A stretch of DNA of 36,963 nt from IMG/VR virus record IMGVR_UViG_2563366920_000001; one strand, 5' to 3'. Numbering within the stretch: position 1 is the stretch's first letter; each line of letters opens with the position of its first letter. Shown piece after piece: positions 11,060 to 21,202 of this stretch. The notes beneath the pieces are model-generated. The model saw nothing but the letters and a program-made list of their open reading frames with translations. It ran no database searches and had not been told where the DNA came from. Source of the stretch: a virus (Duplodnaviria; Heunggongvirae; Uroviricota; Caudoviricetes). Both the position numbers and the translations under genes were made by a program.

Positions 11060-12608
11060 TGTCTCTTGATCAGATCTCCTGATCAAGAGACTTCATCACC
11101 AGGTAACCCTCAACCATATCCTGAAGTCTGAACCAGCCATCCCACATGACTACCCAACCGGGGCGACCTGTGCGTTTGCTGTCATGCCATCGCCCCAGTT
11201 TCGCCAGTTTCAGACAGGCCCATTTCAGTGTCGGCATCTGTGACGGAAGCGGTTTTCCTTCCAGCTTAACCCACAGCAGTTTCCACTCTGTCGGCGTCAG
11301 TATTTTCTCACAGCTGTCATTTTGTGTTTCTTCACTGATACCGCCCTGCCGCAGGCCCAGCACCCGCACCGCGATAAACGCCTTGATAACCACCATGCGC
11401 TCGAGGTTATCCCGGGTCTGCATTCGCAGCGATTCCACACATGTACCACCACTTTTCCACGCCTTGTGGTATTCCTCTATCAGCCAGCGTCGCTCGTAAT
11501 GGCTGACGATACGTCGCGCATCGGCGGCACTCGCCACTTTTTCTGACGTCAGCAGATGCCAGCAGGCGCCGTCCTCTGCCTGCTCCCGGCAACAGACATA
11601 CGTGAGCGGGAGCGCCTGGCCGCTGTTGTCGGGATTTTTTATGCTGACTTCGCTGTAACTGATGAACATCCGGGCCTGGCGGGCTGCCCGCCCGCCTTTT
11701 TGCATCACATTTAGCGTGTGGCTTCCCGCGGTTGCTAGGACTTCCGGCAGTTCGAAGAGCTTGCCGGGTGCTTCTTCCAGCCGGCGATTCTGTGCTGCAC
11801 GCACCACGAAGCGCTGCCCGTGGCTGACTTTATAATGCAGGTAATGCCAGATATCCGCTTCCCGGTCACAGACAGTGATTACCCGTTTCTGTATCTCCCC
11901 CAGCCGTTCGGCCATGCGCTCCGAAGCCTGCTGCCAGCGGTAACTTTCTTTTTCTTCATAGGGACGTTCTTTTCGCTGGTGCTTAACACCGTAGGTGTCC
12001 GTGGCACGACTCCAGCGCTGCTGTTCGATAAGACCGACTGGCAGGGCGCTGTCGGGGGCGTACATCAGGACAGAGTGAGCCAGCAGCCCGCGCGTCTTCG
12101 GGTTAGTGGTGGTATTCCCCAGGTCATCAGATGCCGTACTGTGACTGAAGTTAATGGTGGTGGTGTCTTCCAGCGCGAGGAGCAGCGGATGAGCCTCACA
12201 TGCCCTTACAGTGGCGGTAAATCCGGCTTCGGCAATGGCTTGCGGGGACACAGACGGGTTACGTATCAGGCGGTACGCACCTTCAACCTGAGCAGTGGAC
12301 TGGGATGATTTCACAATAGAAAGACCTGCATGCTGAGCGAGAGAAGAGGCCAGTGACACAAGGCGTCGTGTACGACGCGGATCACCGAGACGGGCATGTC
12401 CAAACTGCTCGTTAGCCCATGAATAACAATCAGAAAGTACCATAACAGACCCGAAGAAAATGAAATATAAGAGAAGATCAACGGGTGAGGAAAAAGTTCA
12501 AAAAATCGCTGCCGGGGAGGAAGGAAACTACCGGATGGAAAGAGTCCCCCTAAAGCAGACTGACAGACATCACAAATCCCCGGGTGGGGATTTGTGTATA
12601 AGAGACAG
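11060..12608 (-). mobile_element. IS4-family (IS50-like) insertion sequence, about 1549 bp, with target-site duplication
   Basis: Left terminus CTGTCTCTTGATCAGATCT (11060-11078) is identical to the IS50 inside end as I recall it. Right terminus, reverse-complemented, is CTGTCTCTTATACACAAAT (ending 12608), outside-end-like. Flanking direct repeat GTTTATGC at 11052-11059 and 12609-12616. Confidence 0.8.
11070..12443 (-). CDS. tnp: Transposase (IS50/Tn5 Tnp family, 457 aa)
   Basis: ATG at 12443. Conserved blocks GDPRRTRRL, VCDREADI, RWLIEEYHKAWKSG and DSKRTG align with Tn5 transposase. ORF ends inside the inside-end-like terminus as in IS50. Confidence 0.85.
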   Translation of the reverse strand: MVLSDCYSWANEQFGHARLGDPRRTRRLVSLASSLAQHAGLSIVKSSQSTAQVEGAYRLIRNPSVSPQAIAEAGFTATVRACEAHPLLLALEDTTTINFSHSTASDDLGNTTTNPKTRGLLAHSVLMYAPDSALPVGLIEQQRWSRATDTYGVKHQRKERPYEEKESYRWQQASERMAERLGEIQKRVITVCDREADIWHYLHYKVSHGQRFVVRAAQNRRLEEAPGKLFELPEVLATAGSHTLNVMQKGGRAARQARMFISYSEVSIKNPDNSGQALPLTYVCCREQAEDGACWHLLTSEKVASAADARRIVSHYERRWLIEEYHKAWKSGGTCVESLRMQTRDNLERMVVIKAFIAVRVLGLRQGGISEETQNDSCEKILTPTEWKLLWVKLEGKPLPSQMPTLKWACLKLAKLGRWHDSKRTGRPGWVVMWDGWFRLQDMVEGYLVMKSLDQEI

Positions 12609-13535
12609 GTTTATGCAGGGGCGTGTACTGCTGGAGCCTGAGCCGGAACGTTATTCATCTTTCGCCAGTGGTGCCGTTCCCGCGGCATCACAACCGCTGG
12701 CGGATGATCCTGCTGTTCGGGCCGTGTTCCGCAATGAGGCAGTGATCCGTCGTGCTGGTGGCGTGGAATGTCTTGAAAGCTGGTTACTTCGTGAAAAAGG
12801 CTGCCAGTGGCCTCATTCCGACTGGCACAGCGAGAACATGACCACAATGCGACACGCTCCGGGCGCAATCCGTCTGTGCTGGCACTGTGATAACCAGCTG
12901 CGCGATCAGTTCACGGAACGGCTGGAATCAATGGCAACGGATAACTGTGCCCGCTGGGTGTTGTCTGTTGTGCGTCGGGATCTCGGTTTTGATGATAGTC
13001 ACGTTGTGACAATGCCGGAACTGTGCTGGTGGCTGATTCGTAATGACCTGGCGGATGCCTTACCGGAAAGTGCAGCCCGTAAGGCACTGAGATTACCAAA
13101 GCCTGTTGTGCCGTCTGTCACCCGGGAAAGTGACCTTGTGCCTTCGGTTCCTGCCACCAGCATCATCCAGGATAAGGCAAAAAAGGTGCTGGCGCTGAAA
13201 GTGGATCCGGAGTCGCCGGAGTCTTTTATGTTACGCCCAAAACGTCGCCGCTGGGTTAATGAAAAGTACACGCGCTGGGTTAAGACACAGCCGTGTGCAT
13301 GTTGTGGAAAGCCCGCTGATGATCCCCACCACCTGATAGGCCACGGTCAGGGGGGAATGGGTACAAAAGCGCATGACCTCTTTGTGTTGCCTTTGTGCAG
13401 AAAGCATCACGACGAGCTGCATGCGGATACCGTGGCATTTGAAGAGAAGTATGGCTCCCAGCTGGAGCTGATATTTCGTTTTATCGATCGCGCGCTGGCA
13501 ATTGGCGTGCTGGCCTGATTTTGTGGAGAAAGTTG

Positions 13536-13913
13536 ATGCGTGATATTCAGATGGTTCTGGATCGTTGGGGGGCATGGGCGGCGAGTGATAGTTCTGGGGT
13601 AGACTATTCGCCTATAGCTGCTGGGTTTAAAGGGCTTCTTCCCTATACAAGCAAAACACGTCAGGCTTGTTCAGATAGTGATGCATTAATTATTGAAGGT
13701 TGTCTTGCTCGTCTAAAGCAAAAAAGACCTGAAGAACACTCGCTTCTTGTTGCCCATTACCTATACGGTATCTCTAAAAGAAAGCTCGCCAAGGCTCGTA
13801 AAAAGGATGAGAAACTAATACGCATTGAGATACAGATGGCTGAGGGGTTTATTGATGGCTGCCTATCGATGTTGGAAATTAGTCTAGAGATGGACCCCGA
13901 AGTTAAAGATTGA
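13536..13913 (+). CDS. Late antiterminator Q (phage 82 / QuuD-type)
   Basis: ATG at 13536 with GGAG 7 nt upstream (ORF track starts at TTG 13521). N-terminus MRDIQMVLDRWGAWAASD...IAAGFKGL matches Q proteins of 82-like lambdoid prophages as I recall them. Confidence 0.75.
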   Translation: MRDIQMVLDRWGAWAASDSSGVDYSPIAAGFKGLLPYTSKTRQACSDSDALIIEGCLARLKQKRPEEHSLLVAHYLYGISKRKLAKARKKDEKLIRIEIQMAEGFIDGCLSMLEISLEMDPEVKD

Positions 13914-13920
13914 TTATTGA

Positions 13921-13945
13921 AGCCCGATTACTCGGGCTTTTGTTC
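13921..13945. terminator. Hairpin terminator between the convergent Q and moron genes
   Basis: AGCCCGA-TTAC-TCGGGCT stem-loop (13921-13939) followed by TTTTGTT on the plus strand. The stop codon of the minus-strand 339-aa gene lies in the loop. Confidence 0.5.
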
Positions 13946-14947
13946 CACATCTCGAACATAGAGAATTACTGCTGACTTAATGTCACCATCGACGTGTTTT
14001 GCGTTAATGCTCAAATGTACAGGCTTTCTTTCCCACTCAGCTCGCTGCAATGCTTCTTTGTTTCCGGATTCATCAAGGAAAACATCCTGAACTACGCAGG
14101 TTAGACGTTGGTCGGTATCTACGCGTCGGACCTTAACTTTGAAACTCTCTGGGTCAGTATTATTGACTTCTTCAATTCGGTAAATACCATCAATCCTCAT
14201 TTCTGATGAACGTCTACGAGCATTCGTAACCAACTCTTTCGCCATTTCAGAATCAATAGTAACGCCATCAATTTGAGCGTTATCTGAACGCACAAAGGAT
14301 TTGACCATTTGGGTTTTAGCGTCATACGACATACGGTCCATGTTATCGAGAAGTGGTTTTTCCGCAATCATTTCTGAAATAACCCGCAGGCGTTTAGTTT
14401 CTTGCTCGCTCATGATCTGCATAGTCCGGAGATGTTCTTTCTCTCCATCCTTAGCAATTTCTGCAAGGCGAATATCTTTGCGGTTGTCCAAGAACCGTTT
14501 AAATACTGTTACTCCGCCCCAGATGACTGCTGCGCCGAGAACAGTAAACATGATCTCAGTTGCGTTCATTTTACCAACAAGTTCCTGTGTGAGTTTGGTT
14601 AAAAAGCCATCAATGTTGATTTCTACTATTGAAGAACCCTGTTCTACCGTAACTTCTATTTCTAGGGCATCAAGTTCTTCTTTGGTCAGTTTGCGGACGT
14701 CAGGGACACCGTACTTGGCAAGGGCATATGATTTGTTGATTTGAGCTTGCATTTCAACAAATCCCTTCATAACTGAAGGTGTTAGCGATCTGTTGAATTT
14801 TTCACCGGTTAATCTGATGGTAAGGTTTGGCCATCCGTTGAAACTTAAACTGTCAGGTAAACCATAACCATCAAGATAGCTTTCAAGCAAATCGAAGGCT
14901 TGCTGCTCAGATTCAATGTCTACATGAATCTCATCAAACTTATCCAA
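13928..14947 (-). CDS. Hypothetical membrane protein (339 aa, one predicted TM helix); moron gene of unknown function
   Basis: Long opposite-strand ORF in a markedly AT-rich segment. TTG start at 14947 with GAGGA 7 nt upstream; first in-frame ATG is 59 codons downstream. Hydrophobic stretch IMFTVLGAAVIWGGVTVF mid-protein. No family recognised. Confidence 0.6.
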   Translation of the reverse strand: MDKFDEIHVDIESEQQAFDLLESYLDGYGLPDSLSFNGWPNLTIRLTGEKFNRSLTPSVMKGFVEMQAQINKSYALAKYGVPDVRKLTKEELDALEIEVTVEQGSSIVEINIDGFLTKLTQELVGKMNATEIMFTVLGAAVIWGGVTVFKRFLDNRKDIRLAEIAKDGEKEHLRTMQIMSEQETKRLRVISEMIAEKPLLDNMDRMSYDAKTQMVKSFVRSDNAQIDGVTIDSEMAKELVTNARRRSSEMRIDGIYRIEEVNNTDPESFKVKVRRVDTDQRLTCVVQDVFLDESGNKEALQRAEWERKPVHLSINAKHVDGDIKSAVILYVRDVEQKPE

Positions 14948-15620: not shown

Positions 15621-16673
15621 ATGAAAAATACTGTAAAAATAAACAGTGTTGATTTAATCAACGCTGATTGCCTGCATTTTATTCAGTCCCTGCCTGATGA
15701 TTCCATTGACCTGATTGTTACCGATCCGCCTTACTTCAAGGTGAAACCTAACGGTTGGGACAATCAGTGGAAAGGGGACGAAGATTACCTTAAGTGGCTG
15801 GACCACTGTCTGGCCCAGTTCTGGCGGGTGTTGAAACCTGCCGGAAGCCTTTACCTGTTCTGTGGGCATCGCCTGGCATCTGATATTGAGATCATGATGC
15901 GTGAACGTTTCAACGTGCTTAACCATATCATCTGGGCGAAGCCGTCCGGACGTTGGAATGGGTGTAATAAAGAAAGTCTGCGCGCATATTTTCCTGCCAC
16001 AGAGCGCGTTCTGTTTGCTGAACATTACCAGGGGCCATATCGCGGCAAAAGTGACGGCTATGCGGCAAAAGAAAGGGAACTCAAACAGCACATAATGGCA
16101 CCGCTGATATCGTATTTCAGGGATGCTCGTGCCGAACTGGGTATAACGGCAAAACAAATTGCCGAAGCCACAGGTAAGAAAAATATGGTTTCCCACTGGT
16201 TTGGTGCCAGTCAGTGGCAGTTGCCGAATGAGGCTGACTATCGGAAGTTACAGGCACTGTTTTCCCGTATAGCGGCAGAGAAGTTTCAGGAACAACAACT
16301 GGAACAACCACACCACCAGCTGGTGGCATCTTATGATTCACTGAATCGCAAATATTCTGAATTGCTGGATGAGTTTAAATCTCTCCGGCGCTATTTCTCC
16401 GTATCAGTCTCCGTGCCTTATACCGATGTCTGGACGCATAAGCCCGTTCAGTTCTACCCGGGTAAACATCCGTGCGAGAAACCGGCGGATATGCTCCGGC
16501 AAATAATCAATGCCAGTAGTCGACCTGGTGATCTGGTTGCTGATTTCTTTATGGGATCCGGTTCCACAATAAAAGCAGCAATGGCGCTGGGGCGTCGGGC
16601 GTTAGGTGTTGAACTTGAGTCAGAGCGGTTTAATCAGACGGTGAAAGAGGTAAGTGAACTGGTGGGGAAATAA
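15621..16673 (+). CDS. DNA methyltransferase, N4/N6 family (beta-class, 350 aa)
   Basis: ATG at 15621. Motif IV DPPY near the N-terminus (DLIVTDPPYFK) and AdoMet motif I near the C-terminus (DLVADFFMGSGSTIKAA), the beta-class order. Confidence 0.85.
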   Translation: MKNTVKINSVDLINADCLHFIQSLPDDSIDLIVTDPPYFKVKPNGWDNQWKGDEDYLKWLDHCLAQFWRVLKPAGSLYLFCGHRLASDIEIMMRERFNVLNHIIWAKPSGRWNGCNKESLRAYFPATERVLFAEHYQGPYRGKSDGYAAKERELKQHIMAPLISYFRDARAELGITAKQIAEATGKKNMVSHWFGASQWQLPNEADYRKLQALFSRIAAEKFQEQQLEQPHHQLVASYDSLNRKYSELLDEFKSLRRYFSVSVSVPYTDVWTHKPVQFYPGKHPCEKPADMLRQIINASSRPGDLVADFFMGSGSTIKAAMALGRRALGVELESERFNQTVKEVSELVGK

Positions 16674-17088: not shown

Positions 17089-17565
17089 ATGCAGGCACTA
17101 AATTCCCAGCGTAAAGCTTTCCTGGATATGGTGGCATGGTCAGAAGGAACGGATAACGGGCGACAACCGACACGTAACCACGGTTATGATGTTATTGTTG
17201 GTGGCGAACTGTTCACTGATTACTCCGATCACCCTCGCAAACTTGTCACGCTAAACCCCAAACTCAAATCAACAGCTGCCGGACGTTACCAGCTTCTTTC
17301 ACGCTGGTGGGATGCTTACCGTAAACAGCTTGGCCTGAAAGATTTTTCTCCAGAAAGCCAGGACGCTGTAGCTCTGCAGCAGATTAAAGAGCGTGGTGCT
17401 TTACCGATGATTGACCGCGGCAGTATTCGTCAGGCAATCGACCGTTGCAGCAATATCTGGGCGTCGTTACCTGGTGCAGGTTACGGTCAGTATGAACATA
17501 AAATCGGTGACCTGATTGCCCGATTTAAAAAAGCTGGTGGGGTAGTAAATGAGGCTGAGATATAA
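17089..17565 (+). CDS. Endolysin, lambda R-type lytic transglycosylase (158 aa)
   Basis: ATG at 17089 with GAAGGAG. Near-identical to lambda R over NQRKAFLDMVAWSEGTDNGRQ...HGYDVIVGGELFTDYSDHPRKLVTLNPKLKSTAAGRYQLLSRWWDAYRKQLGLKDFSP (recalled). Confidence 0.9.
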   Translation: MQALNSQRKAFLDMVAWSEGTDNGRQPTRNHGYDVIVGGELFTDYSDHPRKLVTLNPKLKSTAAGRYQLLSRWWDAYRKQLGLKDFSPESQDAVALQQIKERGALPMIDRGSIRQAIDRCSNIWASLPGAGYGQYEHKIGDLIARFKKAGGVVNEAEI

Positions 17566-17941
17566 GCTGGTTATTGTTGCCTTCGTTGTTAGCGTCATTG
17601 GTTCCTTCATCTGGTCTGCTGGACATTACTACAGCAAATATCAGCACGAAAAGGAGCGTGCTGATGAGGCTGTACGAAATGCTGAATCAGCAACTGCCAT
17701 TACCCGTAACGTTCTGCAATCACTGCAAATCATCAATACAGTTATAGAGGCTAACCAGCATGCAAAACAGCAGATCGCACTGGAGTCACAGAGAACCCAG
17801 GAAGATATCAAAGTGGCTGTTGCGGATGATGATTGTGCTTCACGTCATGTGCCTGCTGCCGCTGCTGACCGGTTGCGGAAGTACGCGAACAGTTTACGTG
17901 CCGGTTCCGGCGGTACCGCTGCCAACAAGCCTGACCACTGA
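17549..17941 (+). CDS. i-spanin (Rz-like, 130 aa)
   Basis: ATG at 17549 overlapping the endolysin 3' end. N-terminal TM segment LVIVAFVVSVIGSFIW followed by coiled-coil-like sequence. Confidence 0.6.
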   Translation: MRLRYKLVIVAFVVSVIGSFIWSAGHYYSKYQHEKERADEAVRNAESATAITRNVLQSLQIINTVIEANQHAKQQIALESQRTQEDIKVAVADDDCASRHVPAAAADRLRKYANSLRAGSGGTAANKPDH

Positions 17942-18083
17942 AACGCCCCAGCCAGTCATTCCCGACCCGCTGACCTATGGGGCCAGTCTGGATCTGAATG
18001 TGAGCCTGCTTTCGGCGCTGGGCCAGTGCAACATCGACAAGGCCAGTATCAGGAAGATAGAAACGTCACGCAACTCACAGTAG
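17826..18083 (+). CDS. o-spanin (Rz1-like lipoprotein) in the +1 frame, extending past the Rz stop
   Basis: Tandem ATGs at 17826 and 17829. Signal peptide with lipobox LLTGC, then Pro-rich sequence. Starts inside Rz and ends 142 nt after it. Confidence 0.5.
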   Translation: MMIVLHVMCLLPLLTGCGSTRTVYVPVPAVPLPTSLTTETPQPVIPDPLTYGASLDLNVSLLSALGQCNIDKASIRKIETSRNSQ

Positions 18084-18084
18084 C

Positions 18085-18122
18085 CATTACAAAGCTCATC
18101 TGCGGGTGGGCTTTGTAATGGC
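18085..18122. terminator. Perfect 12-bp stem hairpin between convergent genes (bidirectional terminator or RNA stability element)
   Basis: CCATTACAAAGC (18085-18096), 14-nt loop, GCTTTGTAATGG (18111-18122). Sits exactly between the Rz1 stop and the opposite-strand gene stop. Confidence 0.4.
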
Positions 18123-18428
18123 TTATTCGTAGTTGTCACCAGGGAAGTATTCCTGAAACTTTGATTTTGGGAGCTGGGTTTTCGCGAAGTTCGCAAGCCT
18201 TCCTCTTGTAAGCATGTAGTCACACCCACCTTCTTGTTTGAGAAGGTCACCAGCTAATGTCCGATACACAACGTCACTTCGCAAAATTTCAATGGTGGAA
18301 TTCCTGATGAGAAATGTTTCACACATCGGGCATCTAATTAACCAAGCGGTATCACGGTTCTGCCAGGTCGCATCTGAATTGCAAGCCGGGCAGCATTTCT
18401 GATCTTCTTGTCCTATGACCATTGTCAT
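18123..18428 (-). CDS. Hypothetical zinc-ribbon protein (101 aa), opposite-strand moron in the bor position
   Basis: ATG at 18428-18426. Two Cys pairs (CCPAC...CPMC) about 20 residues apart. Protein-like composition. Not similar to lambda Bor as I recall it. Confidence 0.5.
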   Translation of the reverse strand: MTMVIGQEDQKCCPACNSDATWQNRDTAWLIRCPMCETFLIRNSTIEILRSDVVYRTLAGDLLKQEGGCDYMLTRGRLANFAKTQLPKSKFQEYFPGDNYE

Positions 18429-18501
18429 GCTCTCGCATAGTGAAGGAATTTTCAGATTAACTCATTTTCAGACGCATCGTAATGGCTTAAGGAAACAATT
18501 A

Positions 18502-18852
18502 ATGCCACCACGTACACCAAAAGCCTGCCGCGTTCGCGGTTGCCGCAATACCACTACTGACCCGTCAGGCTATTGCGAAAGCCACAAAAGCGAAGGCTGG
18601 AAGCAATACAAACCAGGCCTGTCACGTCATCAGCGCGGCTACGGTTCGAAGTGGGACAGTATCCGCGCGCGTGTCCTGAAGCGTGACAAAGGCCTGTGTC
18701 AGTTATGTCTGCGTGCTGGTGTGGTGCGTGAGGCGAAGACCGTTGACCACATCATCCCTAAATCGCATGGCGGCACTGATGTCGACAGTAATCTGCAGAG
18801 TTTGTGCTGGCCGTGTCATAAGGCGAAGACGGCCCGTGAACGGCTGAAGTAA
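18502..18852 (+). CDS. HNH endonuclease (terminase-associated)
   Basis: ATG at 18502 with AAGGAA. Cys-rich N-terminus plus HNH core (VDHIIPKSHGGTDVDSNLQSLCWPCH), immediately upstream of terminase as in HK97-like phages. Confidence 0.8.
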   Translation: MPPRTPKACRVRGCRNTTTDPSGYCESHKSEGWKQYKPGLSRHQRGYGSKWDSIRARVLKRDKGLCQLCLRAGVVREAKTVDHIIPKSHGGTDVDSNLQSLCWPCHKAKTARERLK

Positions 18853-18977: not shown

Positions 18978-19472
18978 ATGGCTGGAACGGCGGGGCGTTC
19001 CGGGCGTCGCCCCAAGCCAACGGCGCGCAAGGCGCTGGCCGGAAACCCCGGCAAGCGAGCCCTGAACAAAGATGAACCCGTTTTTACGCCCATCAAAGGT
19101 GTTGAGCCACCGGAGTGGTTCGCTGAAGAAGAGCTCCCTCTCGCCACGATCATGTGGCAACTGACAACCAAAGAACTCTGCGGTCAGGGCCTGCTGTGCG
19201 TGACTGACCTCGCAGTGCTTGAGCGGTGGTGCGTGGCCTATGAGTTCTGGCGACGTGCCGTGAAAAATATTGCCAGACAGGGCAACACCATCACCGGTGC
19301 AATGGGCGGCATGGTCAAAAATCCGGAGCTGACCGCCAAAAAAGAACAGGAGTCCGAGATGAGCAGTACGGGGGCAATGCTCGGACTCGACCCCAGCAGC
19401 CGCCAGCGTCTGATTGGCCTGGCGGGGCAGAAGAAAGCCACTAACCCGTTTCTGAAAATTATCGAATCATGA
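18978..19472 (+). CDS. Terminase small subunit
   Basis: ATG at 18978 with AGGAG 8 nt upstream (ORF track starts at GTG 18969). Basic N-terminus. Stop overlaps the large subunit start as ATGA. Confidence 0.75.
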
Positions 19473-21202
19473 GCCGGAAATCTTACCCCAACGTAAATGC
19501 TGCCAATCAGTATGCCCGGGATGTCGTGCGCGGAAAGATTGTTGCCTGCCAGTTTGTGATTCAGGCCTGCCAGCGCCATCTTGATGACCTGATGGCGGAA
19601 AAAAGTAAGTCGTTTCGTTACCGCTTCGACAAGGACCTGGCTGAACGGGCCGCCAAATTTATTCAGCTGTTGCCGCACACCAAGGGTGAGTGGGCATTCA
19701 AGAGGATGCCCATCACGCTGGAGCCGTGGCAGCTCTTTGTGATCTGCTGTGCGTTTGGCTGGGTCAATAAAGGCTCCCGGCTGCGCCGCTTCCGGGAGGT
19801 GTATACCGAAATCCCCCGTAAGAACGGCAAATCGGCAATCTCTGCCGGTGTCGCCCTGTATTGTTTTGCCTGTGATAACGAGTTTGGCGCGGAAGTGTAT
19901 TCCGGTGCCACGACAGAGAAACAGGCGTGGGAAGTCTTTCGCCCGGCGCGACTGATGTGTAAACGCACGCCCATGCTGACGGAAGCGTTCGGGATTGAGG
20001 TTAACGCCTCAAACATGAACCGTCCGGAGGATGGCGCGCGGTTTGAACCGCTGATCGGTAACCCCGGTGATGGTTCATCACCCCACTGTGCGGTGGTGGA
20101 TGAATATCACGAGCACGCCACCGATGCGCTTTACACCACGATGCTTACCGGGATGGGGGCGCGACGTCAGCCACTGATGTGGGCCATTACTACTGCCGGG
20201 TACAACATTGAGGGGCCGTGCTACGACAAGCGACGGGAAGTTATCGAGATGCTCAACGGGTCGGTACCCAACGATGAACTGTTCGGGATCATCTATACCG
20301 TTGACGAAGGCGATGACTGGACCGACCCGCAGGTGCTGGAAAAAGCTAACCCGAATATTGGCGTGTCGGTTTATCGCGAATTTTTGTTAAGTCAGCAGCA
20401 GCGTGCGAAAAATAACGCCCGTCTGGCAAACGTCTTTAAAACAAAACACCTCAATATCTGGGTGTCGGCGCGTTCGGCGTATTTCAACCTGGTGAGCTGG
20501 CAGAGCTGCGAGGATAAATCACTGACCCTTGAGCAGTTCGAGGGGCAGCCGTGCATTCTGGCCTTTGACCTGGCGCGTAAGCTGGATATGAACAGCATGG
20601 CGCGACTTTATACCCGCGAGATTGACGGTAAAACGCATTACTACAGTGTGGCCCCGCGTTTCTGGGTACCGTATGACACGGTGTACAGCGTCGAGAAAAA
20701 TGAAGATCGACGGACAGCCGAACGCTTTCAGAAATGGGTGGAAATGGGCGTTCTGACCGTTACCGATGGTGCGGAGGTGGATTATCGCTACATCCTCGAG
20801 GAGGCCAAAGCGGCGAACAAAATCAGCCCGGTCAGTGAGTCACCCATTGACCCCTTCGGGGCGACCGGGTTGTCACATGACCTTGCTGATGAAGACCTGA
20901 ACCCCATCACTATCATTCAGAACTACACCAACATGTCCGACCCGATGAAAGAGCTGGAAGCGGCAATTGAATCGGGGCGCTTTCATCATGATGGCAATCC
21001 CATCATGACCTGGTGTATCGGCAACGTGGTCGGCAAAACCATTCCGGGTAACGATGATGTGGTGAAGCCCGTCAAAGAGCAGGCGGAAAACAAAATCGAT
21101 GGTGCAGTTGCGCTGATTATGGCGGTTGGCAGAGCCATGCTGTACGAGAAAGAAGACACGCTGTCTGACCACATTGAGTCCTATGGGATCCGCTCGCTTT
21201 AA
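19469..21202 (+). CDS. Terminase large subunit (HK97-type, 577 aa)
   Basis: ATG at 19469. Walker A-like region and nuclease-domain acidic residues. Size and position typical of terminase large subunits. Confidence 0.9.

Follow-up and report, generated by a model that had tools for sequence, protein, structure and literature searches.

In phage lambda, the moron bor lies between Rz/Rz1 and cos and is expressed in the lysogen. The Lar-type restriction-alleviation families (PF14354, TIGR03655, phrog_6422, phrog_599 and phrog_38103) comprise small, phage-encoded accessory proteins with an N-terminal CPxC...CxxC zinc ribbon. In T4-type phages, the PeSL cassettes are ORFans within a plastic part of the genome, flanked by short, conserved stem-loop and promoter motifs whose homology permits shuffling of modules (Arbiol et al. 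2010, PMC2839356). Here we describe a cassette at positions 18084-18494 of the virus record IMGVR_UViG_2563366920_000001 (Caudoviricetes), the whole 36,963-nucleotide stretch of which is called the window below. The cassette holds a hairpin, an antisense gene for a zinc-ribbon protein and a conserved upstream region, and it stands between Rz1, the last lysis gene, and an HNH endonuclease gene, the first gene of the packaging block (Table 1). The host element is an SfV/HK97-like E. coli prophage, and this region of its late operon is 100% identical to several E. coli chromosomes. Strains KSC1031 and O15:H18 ST69 are examples of E. coli with the identical prophage.

Like bor, the zinc-ribbon gene is a single small gene that follows the spanin genes directly, precedes the packaging region and is opposite in strand to the late operon. 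The preliminary description of this DNA had noted the same slot and orientation, and had regarded the product as unrelated to Bor; both observations stand. Unlike Bor, which is an outer-membrane lipoprotein, the zinc-ribbon protein is predicted to be cytoplasmic, and it has no sequence similarity to Bor. Neither a signal peptide nor a membrane segment is found in it, its N-terminus (MTMVIGQEDQKCC) has no hydrophobic h-region and no lipobox, and no Bor family occurs among its Pfam hits at E<=1. The earlier reading of a cargo gene in the bor position was reasonable but incomplete. The reading that we favor, and hold to be slightly on the probable side, is that the cassette is a self-contained accessory moron between Rz1 and HNH, with its own expression outside the lytic phase, a binding-type role in conflict, and a late-strand hairpin that serves as its boundary and as homology for recombination.

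The zinc-ribbon gene and its slot

The minus-strand open reading frame (ORF) of 101 aa with two Cys pairs, converging on the spanin genes, is present as first described (18123-18428, with the motifs CPAC and CPMC). Its start codon is likely to be the ATG at 18422, giving 99 aa, because every homologue begins at the third codon of the 101-aa ORF (MVIGQ...) and a GAGAG motif precedes that ATG by 7 nt. The ORF is a genuine protein-coding gene under strong purifying selection. For the five orthologues recovered together with their DNA (61-91% identity), the pairwise ratio of nonsynonymous to synonymous substitution rates (dN/dS) is 0.07-0.13 at dS values of 0.6-1.7, and the differences are concentrated at third codon positions. 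The frame is intact and the cysteines are invariant across about 19 clusters, down to 39% identity. It might be argued that the frame is open by chance, within a non-coding spacer or an antisense-RNA region, hence the lack of a call by the annotation pipeline PGAP. RefSeq/PGAP indeed leaves the ORF out in the two genomes inspected in full, and for most other matching genomes the RefSeq annotation lists only lysC and HNH under the match. There is also one frameshifted allele, the 148-aa P0006 from an ENA metagenome contig, which is the same up to residue 57 and then runs out of frame through the hairpin. A dN/dS of about 0.1 maintained over dS values up to 1.7 nevertheless makes this explanation extremely improbable, and the intact frame, the invariant cysteines and a confident predicted fold obtained from only five sequences also speak against it.

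In the numbering of the 99-aa protein, the invariant residues are C11, C14, C31, C34, W20, N22, D24, the DLLK motif, LT, A80, F89 and P94, with W20, N22 and D24 falling between the two Cys knuckles. The four cysteines are invariant in the 8 aligned members and present in all 17 of 17 members. The AlphaFold2 model, built from the five-sequence alignment with a mean predicted local distance difference test (pLDDT) score of 80.7, has four strands (residues 6-10, 17-22, 26-30 and 36-40, together forming the ribbon at residues 6-40) followed by four helices. Sequence and predicted structure thus agree on the features of a zinc ribbon: two CxxC-type knuckles, invariant cysteines and β-hairpins. The protein is accordingly modeled as an N-terminal four-Cys zinc ribbon joined to a small four-helix C-terminal domain. 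Its charge, from a residue count of the sequence, is near neutral and not basic.

Remote-homology search and structure prediction had been proposed at the outset as checks. The latter returned the confident ribbon/helix model, and the former returned only sub-threshold matches. With several members as queries, no relative above threshold was found in Pfam, PHROG, NCBIfam, PADLOC or PDB, and PADLOC returned nothing beyond noise. The C-terminal 60 residues have no match in Pfam or PDB, and PDB sequence profiles of the whole protein and of the C-terminal half gave nothing useful. The only recurrent profile matches are to Lar-type families, over the ribbon. One reading of these matches is that the protein is a distant, extended relative of Lar that shields phage DNA, on entry or after induction, from type I restriction by the host and is expressed from the first-entering end. 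The best Pfam, PHROG and NCBIfam matches of several divergent members are always Lar families (E 1e-4 to 5e-3), several "Lar-like" PHROGs match at E 0.003-0.03, and two members carry a precomputed PF14354 match. DNA-modification genes are frequent neighbors, namely an N6_N4 methyltransferase in the window and in locus L025, a tRNA-guanine transglycosylase-like (TAGT) gene in L028 and a DndB gene in L026. In lambda, the last-packaged right end is injected first, and the distance here from the gene to the cos site, presumed to be between HNH and TerS, is about 430-850 bp. However, every score is below the curated cut-off (PF14354, 17.6-22.7 against 28.6 bits; TIGR03655, 14 against 39.6). Only the generic CxxC...CxxC ribbon aligns, about 30 residues with similar spacing, and the ribbons of YacG, PaaD, primase and RNA polymerase subunit P score similarly. 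The zinc-ribbon family also has the extra conserved 60-residue helical domain, which is absent from Lar. The modification genes nearby are encoded on the other strand and belong to the usual content of the region anyway. We consider a Lar-type function doubtful.

Two other assignments were tried and rejected. A toxin-antitoxin or MqsA-like role was discarded, as none of the contexts has a partner gene and no profile matched. A helix-turn-helix (HTH) identity for the C-terminal domain rests on a 27-residue motif, LT..LA.FAK..LP...F..FPG, which resembles the repeat unit of an 869-aa protein (P0009) whose repeats score just under the threshold for homeodomain-like HTH; this is insufficient, and the C-terminal half has no HTH profile or fold match. 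From the sequence, the motif may be taken as a lead, and it is no evidence of DNA binding.

The family is tiny, new, orphan and confined to enterobacterial temperate phages. Iterated searches of 5.8 billion proteins gave 6 and then 17-18 clusters, bringing the family to about 19 clusters at 90% identity. An exhaustive hidden Markov model search of 1.84 billion cluster representatives gave 4 hits, the only additions being two true relatives and one repeat protein. The C-terminal domain searched alone revealed no other domain architecture. There is no match in GTDB representative genomes, and tblastn with the protein found none in 50,697 phage records, lambda included. IMG/VR has 10 loci that carry the gene, the allele of the window occurs in 32 of 5426 complete E. 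coli genomes, and a plasmid search gave one near-identical copy, in a 1.3-Mb replicon. The preliminary description had named absence of the ORF from related prophages as a reason to drop it; the ORF is conserved in related and in unrelated temperate phages. A very rare protein family, absent from Pfam, PHROGs and PADLOC and not called by PGAP in the genomes inspected, is thereby added to the antisense cargo genes at the lysis/packaging junction of temperate phages.

In every recovered locus, the gene is opposite in strand to its neighbors and lies between the lysis cassette and the packaging genes, and the packaging modules beside it are of at least six types (Table 1). An empty site is seen in a closely related prophage in E. 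coli 19-5 (L094), in which the Rz1 TAG is followed after 26 bp by the HNH ATG, with no hairpin and no ORF. The same slot is filled by a late-sense GrlR-family regulator gene in E. coli PBS4 (L095, 509-829) and by yet another gene in SfI. In P22, an unrelated antisense gene occupies the lysis/terminase slot, right after the hairpin of that phage. The GC content of the cassette is 0.448, compared with 0.525 for the window, 0.511 for the lysis genes and 0.556 for HNH-TerL. Homology among the window, L003, L005 and L006 begins and ends at the cassette edges, 18084 and 18494. Because Rz1 and HNH are adjacent in the relative and the cassette is AT-richer than its flanks, 18084-18494 is an insertion with the position and the base composition of a moron: extra DNA between genes adjacent in relatives, and a composition unlike that of its neighbors. 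The cargo status proposed at first is upheld by this adjacency. The fixed slot and orientation across unrelated packaging modules offer a simple means to find more such genes.

A moron would also have its own promoter and terminator. Upstream of the ORF, about 65 bp are conserved and contain weak -35/-10-like hexamers; a consensus scan of 17900-18700 finds no sigma-70 promoter that meets the threshold. Directly after the ORF stop there is a hairpin, without a U-tract and with the poorer fold on the ORF strand. The ORF start is 74-80 bp away from the HNH ATG at 18502; a spacing of within 75 bp had been reported earlier. The divergent promoter region deduced from this spacing is not sustained. 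In the empty-site relative, HNH simply follows Rz1 by 26 bp and is cotranscribed, so that HNH needs no promoter of its own and a divergent promoter is needed only for the ORF. Judging from the conserved block, the promoter of the zinc-ribbon gene would be located in the upstream region.

The slot and orientation match those of lysogen-expressed morons such as bor, and could point to prophage defense or superinfection exclusion, in which a single small protein made in the lysogen blocks other phages, for example via their packaging or their DNA. Other antisense genes are found in the same slot in P22 and in the gap between Q and the lysis genes of this prophage, and a KwaB-like gene is nearby in a sister prophage. 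Against this, the PADLOC search gave nothing above noise, and the protein has no enzymatic or membrane domain. We regard exclusion as an unlikely role, though one in keeping with the position of the gene.

A widespread hairpin of the late strand

A perfect 12-bp hairpin at 18085-18122 had been described as separating the zinc-ribbon gene from the spanin genes. The hairpin is real; its perfect Watson-Crick stem is 14 bp (18082-18095 paired with 18110-18123), the earlier coordinates being off by about 1, and two G·U pairs lengthen the helix to 19 bp in the + strand RNA. The minimum free energy is -31.9 kcal/mol (z -6.6) for the + strand compared with -23.1 kcal/mol for the - strand. Both the Rz1 stop (18081-18083) and the ORF stop (18123-18125, minus) extend into the base of the stem. 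It is not a feature particular to these two genes. The hairpin is one copy of a widespread late-strand family, not private to the zinc-ribbon gene and probably not that gene's own terminator.

Two sequence types of the hairpin were found in 147 and 97 phage records, which puts the family in roughly 150-240 lambdoid records overall. The carriers include P22, Sf6, HK620, HK022, HK97-like mEp phages, Stx phages and Salmonella and Klebsiella phages. The hairpin is nearly always in single copy per genome, between the lysis and terminase genes, and a pattern scan of IMG/VR yielded about 22 further true loci with 14 more inner-stem variants. In the typical setting, a late-sense stop codon abuts the 5' edge of the hairpin, and a ribosome-binding site (RBS) and start codon follow the 3' edge.

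To evaluate the selection for pairing, 26 distinct copies were aligned in the sense of the late transcript. Pairing is retained in 97.2% of the cells, and 9 of 15 pairs have changed on both sides (54 cells). Values this high were not reached in any of 500 shuffles, and pairing in slid controls is 35-52%. The late strand has 46 G·U cells and the ORF strand 2, with pairing on the latter falling to 85.8%; one stem position is U·G in 19 of the 26 copies, and all copies but one (25/26) have the better fold in the late sense. Sequence conservation is seen in the outer arms (CAUUA/UAAUG) and in a 2x2 internal loop (CA/GA), and the inner stem covaries. Among the 26 copies, that of the window alone has the internal loop closed. 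The closure results from two substitutions, which is why this hairpin looked "perfect".

The hairpin is not a canonical intrinsic terminator because it has no U-tract. Between 0 and 6 T residues are present in the 10 nt after the stem across 30 copies, an RBS often follows directly, and the scan of 17900-18700 found no terminator-like site on either strand. A known RNA family was also considered, and no Rfam match was obtained. In being strand-specific and covarying, with a conserved internal loop, a position between stop codon and RBS in a long operon and no U-tract, the hairpin resembles the repetitive extragenic palindromic sequences and bacterial interspersed mosaic elements (REP/BIME) of E. 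coli and the RNase III sites of T7. Unlike in sequence and lacking an Rfam family, it can be compared with them by analogy. By that analogy it is most likely an intercistronic late-mRNA hairpin, acting as a 3' stabilizer or processing structure. A role as single-stranded DNA is possible. The genome paper of phage L mentions terminator-like structures inside the late operon, with role unknown (PMC8022706). These general remarks on intra-operon terminators and the PeSL analogy were all that a literature search provided; no description of the gene or the hairpin was found in it.

Even where the proteins are about 50% identical, the hairpin is found with the ORF, and in most loci the ORF stop abuts it. 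In L012 and L028 the two are 30-40 nt apart, and in L025 the hairpin is displaced upstream. In L026, a canonical bidirectional terminator takes the place of the hairpin, an argument that this position requires a 3'-end or insulator function.

The closeness of ORF and hairpin raises the alternative that the protein is a nucleic-acid-binding regulator. Its targets would be the conserved CATTAC arms, in DNA or in late-strand RNA, and it would control its own promoter and maybe also late-transcript read-through, stability or translation at the junction. A CATTAC half-site overlaps the -35-like hexamer, and a third copy of the arm is in the upstream region. The abutment of ORF stop and hairpin holds in subfamilies down to about 50% identity, and the outer arms are invariant in sequence while the inner stem covaries. 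The 27-residue motif, common to repeats near the threshold for homeodomain-like HTH, could also be seen in this light. However, the hairpin is present in well over 100 phage genomes without the zinc-ribbon gene; since most hairpins exist without the gene, the hairpin does not need the protein. The gene in turn is found without the hairpin in L026 and with a displaced one in L025, there is no HTH family match for the C-terminal domain, and the protein is near neutral rather than basic. A regulator of this kind seems to us rather unlikely.

It is noted that a conserved block of about 150 bp without an annotated gene lies beside the hairpin in P22 (L029, ~1419-1560), HK620 (L030, ~1288-1434) and HK022 (L008, ~1560-1720). 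It appears in these phages as a common spurious ORF, "MSFHQSATTKNLFCH...", and has no Rfam match. The block could be an undescribed RNA or regulatory element.

Proposed cassette movement and possible functions

The right arm of the hairpin is duplicated. Two exact copies of an 11-mer, one being part of the hairpin and the other an orphan arm, bracket the ORF and its upstream region (Table 1). The homology among the window, L003, L005 and L006 begins exactly at the outer edge of the hairpin and ends at the half-site upstream of the ORF. The homologous half-site in L003, L005 and L006 stands before the RBS of the late gene that follows. The same arm occurs in L095 within a mini-hairpin just before HNH. 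In that locus, the GrlR-family gene is followed by a canonical terminator and the mini-hairpin (GCCATTAC-N16-GTAATGAT, 850-915), which stand just before the HNH RBS. A small late-sense gene (DUF2560 / 75 aa) is enclosed in L005 and L006 by two full hairpins that differ in sequence type, which suggests that the hairpins delimit exchangeable single-gene modules.

The arrangement has its closest described analogy in the PeSL cassettes, in that a hairpin and a duplicated arm bound an ORFan cassette, and in that the homology between phages ends at these motifs. Held against the PeSL pattern, the cassette has the full hairpin at one end and only the 11-bp arm copy at the other. In contrast to PeSL, the phage group is another one, the motif is unrelated, and the hairpin, which lacks a U-tract, is under selection on the strand that does not encode the ORFan. 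Recombination at the hairpins would be the simplest model for movement of the cassette. The hairpins would be short common sequences at which lambdoid phages recombine, and the cassette would be carried between hairpin-bearing sites, with the hairpin and the duplicated 11-bp right arm supplying the short homology for its shuffling between phages. The hairpin is possibly the weightier outcome of this analysis: it is covarying and strand-specific, common to P22, HK022, HK620 and Sf6, has no Rfam family and would mark the exact points of module exchange. Recombination linkers of such a kind have long been postulated for lambdoid mosaicism.

In the accessory-moron reading, the zinc-ribbon gene would be transcribed against late transcription from its own weak promoter in the upstream DNA, and therefore would be expressed when the late operon is silent, either in the lysogen or immediately after DNA entry. 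During lytic growth, head-on late transcription would shut the gene off. The pre-existing late-strand hairpin would double as the 3' boundary of the antisense gene. The protein may act as a small binding module whose zinc ribbon contacts protein or nucleic acid. It would have no structural or lysis function, and its role may lie in conflict between host and phage or between phages, such as restriction alleviation, exclusion or anti-defense. The lysis/packaging junction is a repeated source of conversion and conflict genes.

Several points weigh against this account. The promoter scan mentioned above was negative, and the candidate -35 and -10 hexamers are weak and differ among the three subfamilies. 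The constant position of the gene could reflect a permissive hot spot of insertion instead of a function. The ORF and the hairpin stay tightly joined to protein identities of about 50%, which could mean instead that protein and hairpin are functionally linked.

A more specific proposal is that the gene forms a "first-in" counter-defense unit near the first-injected end, with its own host-type promoter, whose product would be made before any other phage protein and would neutralize a host restriction or defense system. The hairpin would then be an undescribed RNA or single-stranded DNA motif that shapes the fate of late mRNA and at the same time is a portable recombination site. The gene is within about 0.4-0.9 kb of the virion end presumed to be injected first, and points inward. 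We give this proposal little credence as a whole.

Gene order and neighboring observations

The coordinates of the cassette, its neighbors and the features compared in other loci are collected in Table 1. Searches confirmed the identities of the lysis genes (holin, endolysin, Rz and Rz1) and of HNH, TerS and TerL.

Table 1. Features of the cassette, of the neighboring genes in the window and of related loci
Feature	Locus	Position	Strand	Remarks
Antiterminator Q	window	13521-13913		
Antisense gene of unknown function	window	13928-14947	-	339 aa; directly after Q; phrog_6191 match; no Pfam family
N6/N4 DNA methyltransferase	window	15621-16673		
Holin	window	to 17085		
Endolysin	window	17089-17565		
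Rz	window	17549-17941		
Rz1 (o-spanin), last lysis gene	window	17760-18083	+	stop codon 18081-18083 abuts hairpin
Hairpin	window	18082-18123	+	19-bp helix including 2 G·U pairs; UGCG loop 18101-18104; member of lambdoid intercistronic family
Inserted cassette	window	18084-18494		hairpin, antisense zinc-ribbon gene and conserved upstream region
Direct repeat copy 1, GTAATGGCTTA	window	18115-18125		exact 11-mer; hairpin right arm and ORF stop codon
Zinc-ribbon coding sequence	window	18123-18422	-	likely 99 aa plus stop; upstream ATG at 18428 is the alternative (101 aa)
Conserved upstream region	window	18429-18494	-	5' untranslated region and candidate promoter; blocks conserved in window, L003, L005, L006
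Shine-Dalgarno GAGAG	window	18430-18434	-	7 nt upstream of ATG 18422; conserved as GAGA(A/G) in L003, L005, L006, L007
Candidate -10-like hexamer, TAATCT	window	18454-18459	-	17-nt spacer to -35-like hexamer
Candidate -35-like hexamer, TTACGA	window	18477-18482	-	
Direct repeat copy 2, GTAATGGCTTA	window	18479-18489		exact 11-mer; orphan right arm, immediately before HNH Shine-Dalgarno AAGGA 18489-18493
HNH endonuclease, first gene of packaging block	window	18502-18852	+	Pfam HNH E 7.6e-17
P27-type TerS	window	to 19472		
TerL	window	19469-21202		
Packaging module	window			P27-TerS with HNH
Packaging module	L003			portal_3 with GIY-YIG
Packaging module	L005			Mu_F with DUF4055
Packaging module	L011, L025			lambda-type GpA with DUF1441
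Packaging module	L012, L028			ParB_N with Terminase_6
Packaging module	L026			Terminase_2
Paired hairpins	L005	4303-4339 and 4670-4705		
Paired hairpins	L006	692-728 and 999-1034		

The antisense gene of P22 encodes 86 aa (L029, 1019-1279, + in the locus and antisense to the late genes), is unannotated in NC_002371, and has a full-length match to phrog_16546 at E 9e-51. It sits between the hairpin (record 40312-40352) and orf80. Like the zinc-ribbon gene, it is a small gene antisense to the late operon, just after a hairpin of the same family and between lysis and terminase genes. Unlike the zinc-ribbon protein, its product is helical and has no Cys motif.

Within the window, the antisense gene that follows Q occupies the Q-to-lysis gap, in which the sister prophage has its KwaB-like gene; it is probably another moron. 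Late-sense neighbors of the zinc-ribbon gene elsewhere include a TAGT protein with a ParB_N protein in L028 (2234-3100 and 3093-3878) and a DndB-like protein in L026 (4383-5522). These TAGT/ParB_N and DndB-like genes are DNA-modification modules placed just before the terminase genes. It should be mentioned that PGAP lists Rz as an incomplete pseudogene in strain KSC1031 (L001, 2650-2919), despite 100% identity to the window over 17900-18600.

Farther to the left, an IS4/Tn5-type transposase gene (11070-12443, minus strand; Tnp_DNA_bind, DDE_Tnp_1 and Tn5 dimerization domain) is inserted in the early-right region of the prophage. A tRNA gene at 1369-1441 is likely to mark the attachment site at the left edge of the prophage, because it immediately adjoins the integrase gene at 1459-2622.

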